A DNA stretch of 64,000 nucleotides, taken from contig CAVOYK010000009.1 of assembly GCA_963700665.1 (NCBI GenBank), forward strand, positions 52,324 through 116,323, written 5' to 3'. The notes under the pieces were generated by a model. The model was not told the DNA's origin. It was given only the letters and a program-made list of their open reading frames with translations, and did no database searches. The stretch comes from an uncultured Actinomycetes bacterium (GTDB lineage Bacteria > Actinomycetota > Coriobacteriia > Anaerosomatales > PHET01). This document shows, in pieces, positions 29,930-35,845 of this stretch (position 1 is the first letter of the stretch; each line of letters opens with the position of its first letter). Made by a program: the position numbers and the translations under genes.

Positions 29930-30391
29930 CTACTGGACGGCGGTCACCACGTAGTCGAGCTGGGTCGTCGATGTCTCGATCCGCGAGACTGTCACGAAGC
30001 CCTCGAGGGCATCACCCGTCACCGTCAGCACGACGCTTCCGGCATCCTCCCCGCCCGTTTGCTCCTGCGCGACCTTCCACCCGGCCTGCTCGAATCCGGC
30101 GGCGATACCGCTGAGCACGTCCTCATAGGGGTCTGAGGTCACCAGCGTCAGACCGTACGCATCTTCGGTACCCGCGGACTCGAGCACCTCAGCTCCGGGC
30201 CACAGGGGCAGACCCTCAGGGGTGTCGGCTGACAGCTCCCCCATCACCTCGGCACCAGCGACGGCTACCGTCGCTTCTTGAGTGACGACCTTGGGGGGAG
30301 GCGTGAATCGCTCCTCGAGGCTCTTGCAGCCAACCAGCGCGAACAACAGGACGGCTGCCAGTGCGGACAGTGTGATGGTTCGGCGGTTCAT
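29930..30391 (-). CDS. Lipoprotein of unknown function
   Basis: ATG at 30391, MNRRTITLSALAAVLLFALVGCKS lipobox. Acidic mature part. Confidence 0.5.
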   Translation of the reverse strand: MNRRTITLSALAAVLLFALVGCKSLEERFTPPPKVVTQEATVAVAGAEVMGELSADTPEGLPLWPGAEVLESAGTEDAYGLTLVTSDPYEDVLSGIAAGFEQAGWKVAQEQTGGEDAGSVVLTVTGDALEGFVTVSRIETSTTQLDYVVTAVQ

Positions 30392-30631
30392 GCGAAGTCT
30401 CCTCGGACGGTCACCGCAGCGCCGCGACGAGTCGGGCGCAGACCTGTATGTGGCGGAAGCGTCTGGAAATCGAATCCAGCCAGGAGGCTCTTCACCCCCC
30501 ACGACGGTTTTGAAGACCGCGGAGCCCACCAGGACCCATCCGCCTCCGTCGGACGATTGTGGAGAGGACGCCGGAGCGTGTCAAACACACCGCACAATTG
30601 GGCAGCTACTGCACGACGAGAGGGGTTCGAA

Positions 30632-31537
30632 GTGGCGAAGAGGCCGTTGGTGGTTGCGGTGACCGTATTCCTGGTGATCGCGGCACTCATCGCCGCGTTC
30701 GTGGGAACGGCGCTCGCGACCGACAGACCGCAGTTCTGTCCTACGTGTCACGAGATGAAGCCCTACTTCGATGCGTGGGCCGCTGGTCCCCACAACGAAA
30801 CGTGGTGCATCGACTGCCACGTCGAGCCCGGGATGACTGCGCGATTCGCCCACAAGTTCGTTGCGCTCCAGGAGGTCTACTCCCACGTCATCGGCAACAC
30901 GTCGTTTCCCCGCGCCGTTCCGCCCGTAGTCCCCGACGCCCGGTGCCTTTCGTGCCATCCAAGCGTACCCGCCTCGATCGACGGATTCCCGCACGCGGCG
31001 CACGCCGAGAAGGGCTACTGCGCGCAGTGCCACTACAACACCGGCCACGATGTCACCGACGAAGCGCTACAGGCTGCGGGTGTATTCGATCCGGCGGCCA
31101 CGCCGCAACGGCTCGGCGGCGAACTGGCCACCGTCGGCAGCGGCAAGGCGAACCTCGCCGGCCACAAGGCCGTGAGCTGCTCGAAGTGCCATGACATGCA
31201 GGCGACCCCCTGCGCTTCGTGCCATTCGCCGCGCGGCGACGAGCATCCCAAAGTCGGCAAGGTGGCCTGCACGGAGTGCCACCCGACAGACGGCGGGTCG
31301 TGGGCGTTCGCACACCCAAACGTCAAGGGCGATTGCGCTGAGTGCCACAAGGCCCCCGCGAAGCACCCGGCGGGCGCCTGTGAGGCATGCCACAAGAACT
31401 CCGGCCGCTCGTGGTCGTTCGCGCACCCGCGCGCCGGCGAGCACTCGTACCGCAGCTTCCCGTGCAAGAAGTGCCACCCAAGTACCTACGACAAGGTGTA
31501 CTGCACCTGCCACAAGGGCCGTCCTCCTCGCGACTAG
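30632..31537 (+). CDS. Membrane-anchored NrfH/NapC/NirT-type multihaem cytochrome (10 CxxCH plus terminal CTCH) with one di-haem SWAF module
   Basis: GTG at 30632. TM helix VVAVTVFLVIAALIAAFVGTALA, then FCPTCHEM (the CxxCHxM signature of NrfH), CIDCH, CLSCH, CAQCH. The extension carries CSKCH, CASCH, CTECH, CAECH, CEACH and CKKCH. The ORF is intact. Confidence 0.75.
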   Translation: MAKRPLVVAVTVFLVIAALIAAFVGTALATDRPQFCPTCHEMKPYFDAWAAGPHNETWCIDCHVEPGMTARFAHKFVALQEVYSHVIGNTSFPRAVPPVVPDARCLSCHPSVPASIDGFPHAAHAEKGYCAQCHYNTGHDVTDEALQAAGVFDPAATPQRLGGELATVGSGKANLAGHKAVSCSKCHDMQATPCASCHSPRGDEHPKVGKVACTECHPTDGGSWAFAHPNVKGDCAECHKAPAKHPAGACEACHKNSGRSWSFAHPRAGEHSYRSFPCKKCHPSTYDKVYCTCHKGRPPRD

Positions 31538-31640
31538 GAGGCGTTGGCGCTGCTAGCGGGCGTGAGAGGTTTCTCATCCTGGTCTCATGTGGCGTTCACC
31601 GTGCGAGCCGATGCTAGGTGTTGCACGCGCCTCGGCAACC

Positions 31641-33254
31641 ATGGAGAACCGCATGTCTCAGGTACGGAGTTGGGCGGCATCGCACAAAGGACTGGCGGCC
31701 ACGTTCGTTGTGGTGGCCGTTCTGCTGTCTCTCGCCGCCGCCATCGGGGTCGCCCAGGCAACCGACAAGCCCGCCTTCTGCGGCGCGGCTTGCCACGAGA
31801 TGGGTCCGTACCACTCGGCGTGGAGCCAGGGGCCCCACAGCGAGATCGAGTGTGTCGAGTGCCACGTAGAGCCGGGCACCGTTGCACGGCTCACACACAA
31901 GGCCGAAGCGATGCGCGAGCTATGGGTGCACCTGTCGGGCGACCCCAAGTTCCCGCTGCCGAGCACGTCCGTCGTGCCCAACGAGCGCTGTATTCGATGC
32001 CACGAAACGGTCAAGACCAGCGATCTCGACCACGCGAAGCACGCCAAGGACCGACTGTGCATCGACTGCCACTCCGATGCGGGACACAAGGTCGACACCG
32101 CAGCGCTCAGCCAGGCCGGCGTGTTGAGTACCGCGACCAGCCAGACCACGGTGGCCAGCGATACCGCGGTCGCGGTCGTGAACGGTGGATCCGCCAACGT
32201 CGCGGGACACGTCCCGGTTTCGTGCTCGCGCTGTCACGACATGGCCAAGACCGGGTGCGACGCGTGCCACGACTCCAAGCACGAGAAGACGGGACCCGCC
32301 GAGAAGAGCGCCGAGTGCACTACGTGCCACGCACCCGGCACGGAGTTCACCTTCGTGCATCCCGAGGGCAAGTTGGACTGCAGCTCGTGCCACGACCAGC
32401 CCACGACCGATCACGAGTTCACCGGTGAGTGCACTGACTGCCACGCTCAGCAGGGAGCGTCGTGGGCATTCGATCACAGCGGGCGCTCCCAGTGTCAGAA
32501 CTGTCACGAGGCTCCCGAGAAGCACCGCGCGGGAGCCTGCTCCAAGTGTCACAAGCCCGGCCCGAAGTGGACCTTCAAGCATCCGGGTTCGTCCTCACAG
32601 TGCACCGCGTGCCACACGAAGCCCGCGGGACACCGCGCCGGTGCCTGCGCGACGTGCCATCGCACCGGTAGCTCCTGGGCGTTTCGCCATCCCAGCAACA
32701 GGTCGTGCACGAGCTGTCACAACCGCCCGTCCGGGCACCGCTCCGGCTCCTGCACGTCGTGTCACCGCGCCGGTGGCTCGTGGGCGTTCCGTCACCCCAG
32801 CTCAGGCTCGTGCTCCAGCTGTCACAAGCGCCCCTCGGGGCACAAGTCCGGGTCGTGCTCCTCGTGCCACCGCTCGGGCCGCTCGTGGGCGTTCCGTCAC
32901 CCTGGCTCGGGCGCGAAGTGCACGAGTTGTCACAAGCGCCCCTCGGGGCACAAGTCCGGGTCGTGCTCCTCGTGTCACCGCACGGGTCGCTCGTGGGCGT
33001 TCCGTCACAGCAGCTCGAGCCGGTGCTCTTCATGCCACAAGGCACCCTCCAAGCACTACGGATCGTCGTGCTCGTCGTGCCACTCGCCCAGCAGGTCCTG
33101 GCGGAATGCCAAGTTCAGCCACCCACGGATCCGTGGCGGAGAGCATTCGTATCGCAGTTTCGCTTGCACGAAGTGCCACCCAAACGGGTATGGTTCGGCT
33201 ACGTGTCGAGCGTGTCACAGCACTTCGGGCGGTCCAAAGGATGACGACGATTAA
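31641..33254 (+). CDS. Membrane-anchored NrfH/NapC-type multihaem cytochrome paralogue with about 23 haem motifs, including a tandem array of 36-aa di-haem modules
   Basis: Start is ATG 31641 or 31653. TM helix LAATFVVVAVLLSLAAAIGVAQA, then FCGAACHEM (CX3CH), CVECH, CIRCH, CIDCH. Nineteen more CxxCH follow. The ORF is intact (the track lists it from 31587). Confidence 0.75.
   Translation: MENRMSQVRSWAASHKGLAATFVVVAVLLSLAAAIGVAQATDKPAFCGAACHEMGPYHSAWSQGPHSEIECVECHVEPGTVARLTHKAEAMRELWVHLSGDPKFPLPSTSVVPNERCIRCHETVKTSDLDHAKHAKDRLCIDCHSDAGHKVDTAALSQAGVLSTATSQTTVASDTAVAVVNGGSANVAGHVPVSCSRCHDMAKTGCDACHDSKHEKTGPAEKSAECTTCHAPGTEFTFVHPEGKLDCSSCHDQPTTDHEFTGECTDCHAQQGASWAFDHSGRSQCQNCHEAPEKHRAGACSKCHKPGPKWTFKHPGSSSQCTACHTKPAGHRAGACATCHRTGSSWAFRHPSNRSCTSCHNRPSGHRSGSCTSCHRAGGSWAFRHPSSGSCSSCHKRPSGHKSGSCSSCHRSGRSWAFRHPGSGAKCTSCHKRPSGHKSGSCSSCHRTGRSWAFRHSSSSRCSSCHKAPSKHYGSSCSSCHSPSRSWRNAKFSHPRIRGGEHSYRSFACTKCHPNGYGSATCRACHSTSGGPKDDDD
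32493..33101 (+). repeat. Coding tandem repeat: about 6 copies of a 105-108 bp (35-36 aa) unit, C..CH.(K/R)P.GH..G.C..CHR.G.SWAF.HP
   Basis: Units start at CQNCH, CTACH, CTSCH, CSSCH, CTSCH and CSSCH. The copies at ~32820 and ~32928 share a long near-identical DNA stretch (tgtcacaagcgcccctcggggcacaagtccgggtcgtgctcctcgtg). Confidence 0.85.
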
Positions 33255-33705
33255 GCGACGACCAGCACGTGAGGGAGCCCTGCAGGCGCCCGCAGCGCAG
33301 AGGACGGTGGTGATCGCAGGCGCCGTCCTACTGCTCGTTATGGGGAGCGGTCTGGCGGTCGCCGCCGGAGCGGGCAGCACCACACGCGCGTCGACTCCGA
33401 CGGTGATCAGGTCGGACCGCACCGTCGAGCCGGTCCCTGTCGCAGCAACGCCTGAGTCCCTCGCCACCGACGCACAGCAGGCGCCCAAGACCACCAAGCC
33501 GCGCGCGGACAAGCCGTCCGCCGCCGGCTCTGGCCCAGCAGCGAAGAAGAGTTCGCGTAAGTCATCGGCCAAGCGCGCCGAGAAGAAGGACGACGATAAT
33601 CGTGAAACCGTTCGTCCGCCCGTTCGCGACGAGGACGACGACGAGGAACACGAGACCGTTCGTCCGCCCGTTCGCGACGAGGACGACGAGCACGACTCCG
33701 ACTAG
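33241..33705 (+). CDS. Small single-pass membrane protein with disordered Lys/Asp-rich tail
   Basis: ATG at 33241 overlaps the cytochrome stop by 14 nt. Sequence MTTIKRRPAREG..., TM helix VVIAGAVLLLVMGSGLAVAAGAG, tail with ETVRPPVRDEDD twice. It was read from the distal part of ORF 32185..33705. Confidence 0.4.
   Translation: MTTIKRRPAREGALQAPAAQRTVVIAGAVLLLVMGSGLAVAAGAGSTTRASTPTVIRSDRTVEPVPVAATPESLATDAQQAPKTTKPRADKPSAAGSGPAAKKSSRKSSAKRAEKKDDDNRETVRPPVRDEDDDEEHETVRPPVRDEDDEHDSD
33607..33689 (+). repeat. Perfect 35-nt direct repeat, period 48 nt
   Basis: accgttcgtccgcccgttcgcgacgaggacgacga occurs at 33607-33641 and again at 33655-33689. Confidence 0.85.
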
Positions 33706-33780: not shown

Positions 33781-34449
33781 TTGAACATCCTGCTCGTCGA
33801 AGACGAGGACAACATCGCCTCGTTCATGTCCAAAGGCCTCACAGCCGAGGGCCATCACGTCGAACGCGCGGCAACGGCCGGTGACGGCGCGGCGCTTGCC
33901 GTGACCTACGACTTCGATGTCGTGCTGCTCGATCTCATGCTGCCTGATGCCAGCGGACGAGACGCGCTCGAGCGCATACGGCAGGTCAAGCCGGATGTCC
34001 CCGTCATCGTTGTCTCGGCTCTGGGTGAGACCGAAGACAAGGTCGACCTGCTCGACCTTGGCGCCAACGACTACCTCGTCAAACCATTCGCTTTCGCCGA
34101 GCTTGCTGCGCGAGTGAGGGCGGCGGGCAGACAGGGCGCAGCGTCCGGCCGTCTGCTTGAGGTGACGGATCTGACCCTCGACACGAAGACCCGAGTCGCT
34201 TCGATGGGCGATGGCCGCAAGGTGGACCTGCCCACACGCGAGTTCACGCTACTGGAGTATCTGATGCGGCACCCCGGCCAGATCTTGAGCCGACAGCAGA
34301 TCCTCGACGCCGTATGGGGCATCGACTTCGACACGGACAGCAACGTCGTCGACGTCTACGTGAGCTACCTTCGCCGCAAGCTGGATCTCGGCGATGGGCC
34401 TTCGGTGATCGAGACCGTGCGCGGAGCCGGCTACCGTGTCAGGGCGTAG
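33781..34449 (+). CDS. OmpR-family response regulator
   Basis: 222 aa, intact. TTG start follows AAGGGAG. Receiver domain LLVEDE...VLLDLMLPD, winged-helix C-terminus TVRGAGYRV. Confidence 0.9.
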   Translation: MNILLVEDEDNIASFMSKGLTAEGHHVERAATAGDGAALAVTYDFDVVLLDLMLPDASGRDALERIRQVKPDVPVIVVSALGETEDKVDLLDLGANDYLVKPFAFAELAARVRAAGRQGAASGRLLEVTDLTLDTKTRVASMGDGRKVDLPTREFTLLEYLMRHPGQILSRQQILDAVWGIDFDTDSNVVDVYVSYLRRKLDLGDGPSVIETVRGAGYRVRA

Positions 34450-35845
34450 GCAGCACTTCTCGGCAAGTGCGCGCGTCCTGTTCGCGATGGCGGGCATGCT
34501 CGCGACCGCGATAGCGCTGCTCGTCTTGCTTGCCTATACGGTCACGTGGCAAACGCTCACGTCTTCGCTCGACGAGACGCTCTTCCGCGAATCCCAGGCC
34601 TACTCGGCGGCCATGAAGGGCGCTCCTGCGGGCGACGCGCTCTCGGATGCCACCCGTTCCTACCTGAGCGGGCGCACCGGTGGAGAGGCTGGCGGCGTGT
34701 CCCCCATCTTGCTCGTCAGGCTCAACAACGGGCGAGTGATATCGAACTCGAACCTCCGCATCGAGGACGCGGCGGGGTCACCAGCCACCGCCACTGCGGC
34801 CCCGGTCTATACGACAGTGACCCTCGGCGGCGACGTCTATCGCACGCTCGCGACACCGCTGTTCGCGCAAGGCGAGCAGGTGGGCCTCTTCGAGGCCGCT
34901 CTCGCCTTGGGTCCCATCCAGCAGACGGCGTCCAACGTGGCGACGACGCTGTCCGCGGCGGGTCTGATCGCACTCGCGATCATGTTGCCCCTCGCCTACT
35001 TCGCCACCCGAAGAGCGCTCTCCCCACTCAGGCGCATGGCCCAAGATGCCGCCGTGGTATCGCACGCTCAACCTGGTCGGCGCATCGACTACAACGGGCC
35101 GCGCGACGAACTCGGATCGCTGGCCGACTCGCTCAACAGCATGCTGATGCGACTTGAGAACTCCTTCGACGACCAGCGCCGTTTCGTCGCTGACGCGAGT
35201 CACGAGCTGCGCACGCCCGTAGCCGTTGTGCGCGGCAACGTCGAGCTTCTGCGCTCCGGGAGGTCCACTGGCGCGGAGGCCACCGAGAGCCTGGCGATGA
35301 TCGAGAACGAGGCCGTGCGCATGACTCGGCTGCTCGACGAGATGCTCGCGCTTGCCCGGCTCGAGGACCCGGATCGTCTTCAGTTCCAGCCGCTCGACGC
35401 CAAAACGCTCGTTGAAGAGGCCGCTGCCCGTGCGAAGACGCTCGGGACGCGGCAGATCGTACAGGCCGATGTGTGCGACATGTGGGTCGAAGGCGACCCG
35501 GACCTGCTAGACCGCGCACTGCTGAACCTCGTGAAGAACGCGGTCGCCCACACGCATGAAGGTGGCCGGATCGTACTGGGGTGCACGGCCGACACCAAAC
35601 ACGTGCGGATCTCGGTCACCGACGACGGTCCCGGCATCCCCGCGCCAGAGCTTGACCGGGTCTTCGACCGTTTCTATCGCGCTCACGGTGGGCGCCGAGA
35701 CGACGCGACCGGCGGGGCGGGGCTCGGCCTGGCCATCGTCCGCCGGCTTGTGGAACTGCACGGCGGCACGGTGCAGGCAGAAAACGTCGATCCCCACGGG
35801 GCTCGCTTCACCATCGAGCTTCCCCGGATCACCACGCCGACCTAG
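34436..35845 (+). CDS. Sensor histidine kinase (two TM segments, HAMP, HisKA, HATPase_c)
   Basis: 469 aa, intact. H-box ADASHELRTP, N-box LLNLVKNAVAH, G-boxes DDGPGIP and GGAGLGLAIV. Confidence 0.9.
   Translation: MSGRRQHFSASARVLFAMAGMLATAIALLVLLAYTVTWQTLTSSLDETLFRESQAYSAAMKGAPAGDALSDATRSYLSGRTGGEAGGVSPILLVRLNNGRVISNSNLRIEDAAGSPATATAAPVYTTVTLGGDVYRTLATPLFAQGEQVGLFEAALALGPIQQTASNVATTLSAAGLIALAIMLPLAYFATRRALSPLRRMAQDAAVVSHAQPGRRIDYNGPRDELGSLADSLNSMLMRLENSFDDQRRFVADASHELRTPVAVVRGNVELLRSGRSTGAEATESLAMIENEAVRMTRLLDEMLALARLEDPDRLQFQPLDAKTLVEEAAARAKTLGTRQIVQADVCDMWVEGDPDLLDRALLNLVKNAVAHTHEGGRIVLGCTADTKHVRISVTDDGPGIPAPELDRVFDRFYRAHGGRRDDATGGAGLGLAIVRRLVELHGGTVQAENVDPHGARFTIELPRITTPT

Follow-up and report, generated by a model that had tools for sequence, protein, structure and literature searches.

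A putative single-polypeptide haem wire with a variable core of di-haem units in an uncultured Coriobacteriia bacterium, and probable gene conversion between two of those units

A stretch of 64,000 nucleotides (nt) of DNA (hereafter the window), taken from a metagenome-assembled genome (MAG) of an uncultured Coriobacteriia/Anaerosomatales bacterium (2.45 Mb in 13 contigs, 77% complete), carries a gene for a multihaem cytochrome in which a short module with two haem sites is repeated in tandem. A first-pass annotation of this DNA read the array as a recent amplification with near-identical copies, whose number would be unstable and might vary between strains. This raises the question as to whether the repeated units are indeed newcomers or whether they belong to an older layout in which two neighbours have come to resemble each other, and what such a chain of haems might do. 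The answer to which the evidence points is that the array is probably the variable core of a haem wire made of a single polypeptide, and that the likeness of its two closest units, u4 and u5, probably stems from gene conversion and not from the birth of a new unit.

The cytochrome frame on the plus strand holds 22 CxxCH motifs and one CGAACH, which follow one another as a four-haem head, a three-haem linker, seven di-haem units (u0 to u6) and a two-haem tail (Table 1). A longer frame of 555 amino acids (aa) opens at 31587; translation truly begins at the ATG of position 31653, since GGAG lies 7 nt 5' of it and the orthologues begin at the equivalent Met. The six consecutive units first described are all present, from 32493 to about 33131 with lengths of 108, 105, 105, 108, 105 and 108 nt (u1 to u6), and each has two CxxCH motifs and two further His, every added unit thus bringing two haem sites as had been proposed; that count of six was right for the units it covered and one short for the array, as u0 stands directly upstream (32379-32492). 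The units have the form CxxCH-x5-H-x4-CxxCH-x5-W-x-F-x-H(P), and in a profile of 103 of them C1, C4, H5, H11, C16, C19, H20, W26, F28 and H30 are invariant (10 of 31 columns) and P8 nearly so. With two CxxCH motifs and two extra invariant His per unit, both haems of each unit are probably bis-His ligated.

At the DNA level the units are far from uniform. Only u4 and u5 are close (87-88% identity), and the near-identity claimed for the copies at large fades from there to 50-65%: u3 is 77-81% identical to u4 or u5 (same-codon fractions 17/24 and 19/24), u2 shares 73-74% with u3 and about 65% with u4 and u5, and all other pairs lie at 50-65%, so the units flanking the closest pair are more than slightly diverged. 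Tandem Repeats Finder accordingly reports 3.4 copies only (32653-33016, period 105, 82% matches). The stretch of more than 45 identical nt noticed from near 32820 and 32928 is real; it is an exact run of 47 nt, the longest exact repeat in the array, the next longest being 22 nt. Along u4 and u5 identity is mosaic, with 56 of 60 nt identical, then 28 of the next 33, after which the tails differ; about 90 homogenised nt followed by distinct tails is a pattern that fits gene conversion or unequal exchange.

Could the constraint on the residues, combined with a strong codon bias towards G and C at third positions, have made u4 and u5 alike without any exchange of DNA? Purifying selection on the units is strong, as the invariant columns attest, and the genome has 65-69% G+C, both of which push independent sequences towards identical DNA. 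Against such convergence, the 16 same-residue codons of the 47-nt run are all identical, for which the codon usage of the window gives a probability of about 1e-6, and where u4 and u5 have the same residue they also agree in codon at 24 of 27 sites (89%) versus 39-71% between orthologous units, with counts such as 9/23 and 16/24. By this codon-level test the run is not due to codon bias alone, and convergence is the least credible of the explanations considered here.

Nor is the pattern at all likely to be an artefact of an assembler that collapsed, expanded or homogenised the array. Such accidents have a basis in relatives. In G002, of the same genus, the orthologue is split over two contig ends (L022 = G002:C231; G002:C247) and the middle of its array is missing, its short-read assembly having apparently broken inside the repeats; in G003 (L009/L032), a 1-nt insertion at the start of u4 (GCACCG-A-GCTG), set against a 92.5%-identical intact contig of P0002, shifts the frame, whether through an error of sequencing or because the gene is truly a pseudogene. 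In the window, however, typical reads and large assembly k-mers exceed the exact repeats of 47 and 22 nt in length, the unbroken frame lines up along its whole length with orthologues of 528-534 aa that have the same seven-unit layout, and the genome is in only 13 contigs. A mis-count is thus unlikely, given the length of the longest exact repeat and the intact collinear frame.

Comparison with the orthologous units of relatives separates the old parts of the array from the exchanged ones. In every relative it is the orthologous u0 that best matches the DNA of u0 (61-76%, versus 50-62% to the other units of its own array); u1 matches orthologous u1 at 63-81% (50-59% to its own other units), u6 matches orthologous terminal units at 67-79% (53-59%), and u2 matches the u2 of P0001 and P0002 at 71-72%. 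One-to-one orthologues are thus clear for u0, u1 and u6 and less sharp for u2 and u3. By comparison, u4 and u5 reach 66-76% with any orthologous unit, below the identity between themselves; paralogous units are more alike than orthologous ones in the case of u4/u5, whereas for u3 this is only weakly so and for u0, u1, u2 and u6 it does not hold. As u4 and u5 are nearer to each other than to orthologous units, an exchange of sequence between them is placed later than their divergence from the P0001 and P0003 lineages.

The positions occupied by u4 and u5 are older than this exchange. A penultimate middle unit of 36 aa ending in HPG(S/Q)(G/S)A(K/R) is found in the window's own genome, P0003, P0006 and P0005, and the GSGAK of the u4 tail has counterparts in the u4 of P0003 (GSSAK), in P0006 (GQSAR) and in P0001 (SSSSK); the matches in these three indicate that both positions predate the split. 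The last middle unit carries RH(S/T/A) without Pro in the own genome, P0001, P0002, P0003, P0005 and P0006, and His without a following Pro occurs in 13 of 55 last middle units versus 3 of 138 other units. Most of the nearest relatives likewise have seven units (P0001, P0003, P0006, G008, G014 and G015), and in P0001 the same seven units include no pair above 71% DNA identity, which argues that the seven-unit layout is old. A net recent amplification does not agree with a count shared by these six relatives and with position-specific tails; what survives of it is the identity of u4 and u5, paralogues closer than orthologues, and a gain over sister lineages is not seen, P0002/G003 alone having six units.

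The exchange is best pictured as non-reciprocal: gene conversion between two old neighbours, confined to their first ~90 nt, would have left the position-specific 3' tails of u4 and u5 intact, and the ~80% identity of u3 with both may be due to the same process. Seven is the common and apparently ancestral count of the clade, the middle units turning over by unequal recombination between old edges (u0, u1, u6 and the tail). The chief competitor is a recent whole-unit tandem duplication that gave rise to u4/u5 (and u3), raised the copy number and left the array unstable and variable between strains at present. It would account for the 88% likeness of u4 and u5 against 66-76% to orthologous units, the nearest relative (P0002, by head and tail) has six units, unequal crossing-over would also spare the outer tails, and relatives do show clear recent duplications. 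Yet the seven units of P0001, P0003, P0006, G008, G014 and G015 and the matching u4 tails in P0003, P0006 and P0001 speak for positions that were already there, and a divergence of 12% is not recent on the scale of populations; such a duplication is possible and distinctly less probable than conversion.

Copy number is labile on a longer time scale. Orthologues were split at their CxxCH pairs and the units counted from the C-terminus with a check on spacing; head, linker, u0, u1, a terminal unit of the HYG type and tail are in all of them, and what differs is the number of middle units. The total number of units ranges from 4 to 11 in 69 of 71 architecture-matched orthologues (the two outlying rows parse, provisionally, as 1 and 2 units). 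A tree built on head and tail columns calls for at least 34 changes in unit number, as against 42.8 for shuffled labels, and sister pairs are often one unit apart. The lability that had been foreseen thus holds between species and genera, with relatives of the same genus having 10 (G001) and six units. The closest protein in the protein collection is at most 72% identical over its whole length (74% in a MAFFT alignment).

Genuinely fresh duplications occur in other arrays and are of a different kind. In the 10 units of G001, u3u4 and u5u6 are a duplicated two-unit block of 91-92% DNA identity; such duplications of two-unit blocks (about 210-216 nt) are found in L033 (=G001), L043, L045 and L077 with identities of 92-98% and exact runs of 51-69 nt, much fresher than any in the window. 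Over the 34 arrays with DNA available, the best pair within an array has an identity of 60-98% (median 73.5); seven of the 34 reach at least 85%, and in the four highest the pair is i/i+2, the mark of a two-unit duplication. The similarity of pairs rises with array length (rho 0.61), a correlation to be read with care as an array with more units offers more pairs and related genomes do not count as independent. In the window, the 47 nt of remaining identity could still permit in-frame deletion or duplication of 108 nt at low frequency.

Table 1. Features of the cytochrome gene and its neighbours (positions in the window)
Feature	Position	Strand	Remarks
Upstream paralogue, same head and tail, about 1.5 di-haem units (10 CxxCH)	30632..31537	+	start approximate
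Multihaem cytochrome gene	31653..33254	+	533 aa, 23 haem sites; Pfam PF03264, PF14537, PF14522 above cut-offs
Predicted N-terminal transmembrane anchor, residues ~12-36	31686..31760	+	AlphaFold2 helix 12-36, predicted local distance difference test (pLDDT) ~90; aligns with NrfH anchor region
NrfH/NapC-like tetrahaem head	31764..32100	+	PF03264, phmmer and Foldseek matches to NrfH
Head haem motifs	CGAACHEM (CX3CH) 31779; CVECH 31851; CIRCH 31989; CIDCH 32058	+	
Three-haem linker (CSRCH, CDACH, CTTCH)	32223..32378	+	both Cys and the His of each motif invariant in 85 homologues
u0	32379..32492	+	114 nt, 38 aa; old, positionally conserved
u1 (…KPGPKWTFKHP)	32493..32600	+	108 nt, 36 aa; old, positionally conserved
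u2	32601..32705	+	105 nt, 35 aa
u3	32706..32810	+	105 nt, 35 aa; partly homogenised with u4, u5
u4	32811..32918	+	108 nt, 36 aa; first ~90 nt homogenised with u5; tail HPGSGAK position-specific
Exact 47-nt run in u4, proposed conversion tract	32820..32866	+	= 32928..32974
u5, last middle unit	32919..33023	+	105 nt, 35 aa; tail RHSSSSR without Pro
Exact 47-nt run in u5	32928..32974	+	= 32820..32866
u6, terminal (…APSKHYG…SPSRSW…FSHPRIRGGEHSYRSFA)	33024..33164	+	108-nt unit to ~33131; conserved, a large share of its columns (nearly) invariant; outside variable core
Two-haem tail (CTKCH, CRACH), acidic end GPKDDDD	33165..33251	+	
Small overlapping gene, single-pass membrane protein, acidic tail	33241..33705	+	such an open reading frame (ORF) 3' of the cytochrome in 27/30 loci
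OmpR-type response regulator	33781..34449	+	ORF; Response_reg/Trans_reg_C on syntenic gene of L025
Histidine kinase	34436..35845	+	ORF; HisKA/HATPase_c on syntenic gene of L025

The head resembles those of known membrane-anchored cytochromes. Its residues 39-118, numbered in the 555-aa frame, match the Cytochrom_NNT family PF03264 at 36.4 bits (cut-off 24.1), and it can be counted as a member; phmmer aligns it with the NrfH of D. vulgaris (2j7a_C) at an expectation value (E) of 1.6e-9. A full-length AlphaFold2 model, with a pLDDT of 84-91 in the head, finds 2vr0_F and 2j7a_C in Foldseek (E 4e-5 to 5e-5, 136-138 columns) with template modelling scores of 0.66-0.67 when normalised to the length of NrfH, and thus predicts an NrfH-like fold. 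One N-terminal helix and four haem motifs, the first with H-E-M, make up the layout of a tetrahaem quinol dehydrogenase, and F42, C43, C47, H48, E49 and M50 are invariant across 85 homologues. The head may therefore be a menaquinol dehydrogenase, and the genome encodes an MqnA/D-family protein of the futalosine route to menaquinone (G000:C5:153194-153958). The first head motif (31779-31796) is CX3CH (CGAACHEM), and the spacing FCxxACHEM is common among the orthologues, whereas the upstream paralogue and the relatives G028, G029 and G039 have the usual CxxCHEM. NrfH proper, as defined by the equivalog TIGR03153, is ruled out (71.4 bits, cut-off 134.2), and there is no nrfA-like ORF among the genes neighbouring the cytochrome.

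The array matches a different class of haem proteins. Taken alone, it scores 40.6 with PF14537 (cut-off 25) and 32.2 with PF14522 (cut-off 24.8); these scores, and the extra His (H11, H30) that accompany each CxxCH pair, assign it by sequence to the class III (c3/c7-type) multihaem cytochromes c. The doubled-CXXCH family PF09699 (Paired_CXXCH_1) touches three stretches of the array at a borderline 19.8, short of its cut-off of 20.6, and precomputed hits to it are present in some homologues. No relative of the unit with a solved structure was found with the 103-unit profile, the best match (E 0.039) resting on the CxxCH motif only, and no match to the array was found in the Protein Data Bank (PDB) with an array-only model, itself a poor one; the full-length model matched NrfH alone. 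With about 18 residues per haem, the units are densely charged with cofactor. In the linker, the second and third motifs (32256-32378; CDACH…CTTCH…FTFVHP) resemble a stretched, degenerate di-haem unit, and the whole C-terminal two-thirds of the cytochrome may have grown from one such unit. The acidic C-terminus is common to nearly all orthologues.

Put together, these parts suggest how the protein might work. The single N-terminal helix would seat the cytochrome in the cytoplasmic membrane with its whole haem part outside; the NrfH/NapC-type head would take electrons from the menaquinol pool, and these would cross the wall of a monoderm (Gram-positive-type) cell by hopping from haem to haem along a close-packed row of about 19, to be delivered to surface cytochromes or minerals, although flow in the reverse direction would also be possible. 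In known haem wires, GSU1996 and MtrA for instance, each haem accounts for about 1 nm of length. On that scale each unit would add ~2 nm, and the 19 haems beyond the head would span very roughly 15-20 nm.

Several points weigh against this picture. Haem occupancy, topology, the oxidation of quinol and the course of the electrons are all deduced from sequence. AlphaFold2 gives the array a pLDDT of only 60-78 in the full-length model and 59.9 when modelled alone. A search of the own genome (77% complete) for ResB, which belongs to the System II pathway of cytochrome maturation, found none; the genome does encode other proteins for the assembly of cytochrome c. Quinones were not detected in Anaerosoma tenue, a cultured relative (PMC9686372), and if this lack held here the role of the head as a quinol dehydrogenase would be in question. 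As to u4 and u5, the nearest relative has six units, and a unit may thus have been lost and then duplicated again (7 to 6 to 7), a course that would leave much the same traces as conversion; conversion is considered the more probable of the two, and loss with re-duplication keeps a real share of the probability.

Does the number of units matter to the cell? The array might be an evolvable molecular ruler, its length fitted to how thick the wall is or how far off the partner cytochromes lie. Frequent in-frame gain and loss of units would set the length by about two haems at a time, conversion between middle units would preserve the DNA identity that lets recombination continue, and populations would hold length variants under selection. 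Such adaptive tuning of length is conjectural, and the ruler as a whole is rather unlikely; the near-random scatter of unit counts fits drift as well as selective tuning. Another reading, also unlikely, is that the protein is no trans-wall wire and serves to store electrons, as a capacitor, or as a scaffold on which partner reductases dock at the membrane surface, with a unit number that drifts neutrally. The counts, nearly as scattered as shuffled labels (34 against 42.8), are what neutral drift would give, and neither a partner reductase nor a cell-wall anchor motif was found adjoining the gene. However, the ligand and aromatic residues are invariant in every unit, which indicates that each unit is kept functional; a very high haem density and linear repeats are typical of wire-like cytochromes (PMC5566968), the host belongs to a Fe(III)-reducing Gram-positive group, and wire and capacitor are compatible with each other.

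The wire remains the preferred reading, and the genes around it are conserved as a set. Relatives keep the order of short paralogue, long cytochrome, small membrane protein, response regulator and histidine kinase. The length of the acidic membrane protein downstream does not correlate with unit number (rho -0.24, p 0.22, 27 loci), and the idea that it scales with the array was rejected. Between 30000 and 34000 the sole sigma-70-like promoter match (TTGACA-17-CACAAT, 30556-30584, minus strand) faces a minus-strand ORF at 29930-30529 that may encode a lipoprotein, and no terminator-like site was found in that region. The homologues come from Coriobacteriia/Anaerosomatales-type MAGs. Cultured Anaerosomatales are Gram-positive rods growing on H2 or formate; of the two cultured members, one depends on Fe(III) reduction obligately while sulfur or thiosulfate is reduced by the other, and both encode 17-18 multihaem cytochromes, including pairs of ‘putative quinol oxidizing multihemes’ (PMC9686372).

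The passage of electrons across thick Gram-positive walls is only partly understood, and the known models rely on several separate cytochromes. If the reading proposed here is true, a quinol-oxidising head and an adjustable haem chain in a single protein would be the simplest such conduit, and the natural “wires” of 4-11 units would allow chain length to be tested against electron transfer in a family widespread among subsurface iron- and sulfur-reducing Coriobacteria. For genome work, unit number should not be carried over from one relative to another, and the array is a place where an assembly from short reads can break, as apparently happened in G002.

The cytochrome joins features of systems that are otherwise known apart. 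With the NrfH/NapC/NirT/CymA family (NrfH, PDB 2J7A/2VR0) it shares the membrane helix, the four-haem domain and the C…CHxM signature of the first haem; it differs in that the first motif is CX3CH, 19 further haem sites are fused C-terminally, and no gene for an NrfA- or NapAB-type partner is nearby. Among wire cytochromes built from repeats, GSU1996 of Geobacter is a dodecahaem protein of four c7-type domains. The PCC3 cytochromes, extracellular or periplasmic, are likewise built from repeats, vary in haem number between species and have been interpreted as molecular wires (He et al. 2017, PMC5566968); they resemble the present protein in their low ratio of residues to haem, their Ser/Thr/Gly/Ala-rich low complexity and their tandem haem repeats. 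By comparison with PCC3 and GSU1996, the unit described here has 35-36 aa, its own W-x-F-x-H-P signature and no relative of solved structure, and the wire and its putative quinol-dehydrogenase head are one polypeptide, in a monoderm host and with no porin.

The tandem pair of Anaerosoma tenue and Parvivirga hydrogeniphila (PMC9686372), of the same order Anaerosomatales, is formed of adjacent genes as in the window, and Carboxydothermus ferrireducens constitutively produces a 20-haem cytochrome (Ga0395992_02_135863_137242) from a gene of about 1.4 kb (PMC7829351); the papers propose that these multihaem cytochromes oxidise quinol. Both are likened to the present cytochrome by description only, homology being a lead to follow, and neither description includes a di-haem repeat unit or a variation in its copy number. 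Multihaem cytochromes are known to gain haems through inserted haem-binding peptide modules (Soares, Paquete and Louro, bioRxiv 10.1101/2025.05.29.656830), and cytochrome repertoires change rapidly in Geobacter (PMC12977616). While that ‘grafting and pruning’ concerns the gain and loss of modules between families over long time scales, here a single unit would be duplicated, deleted and converted in frame, at the DNA level, among close relatives. What appears to be new is thus the combination of a W-x-F-x-H-P di-haem unit behind its own putative quinol-dehydrogenase head in monoderm Coriobacteriia, together with evidence in the DNA that points to ongoing duplication, deletion and conversion of that unit.

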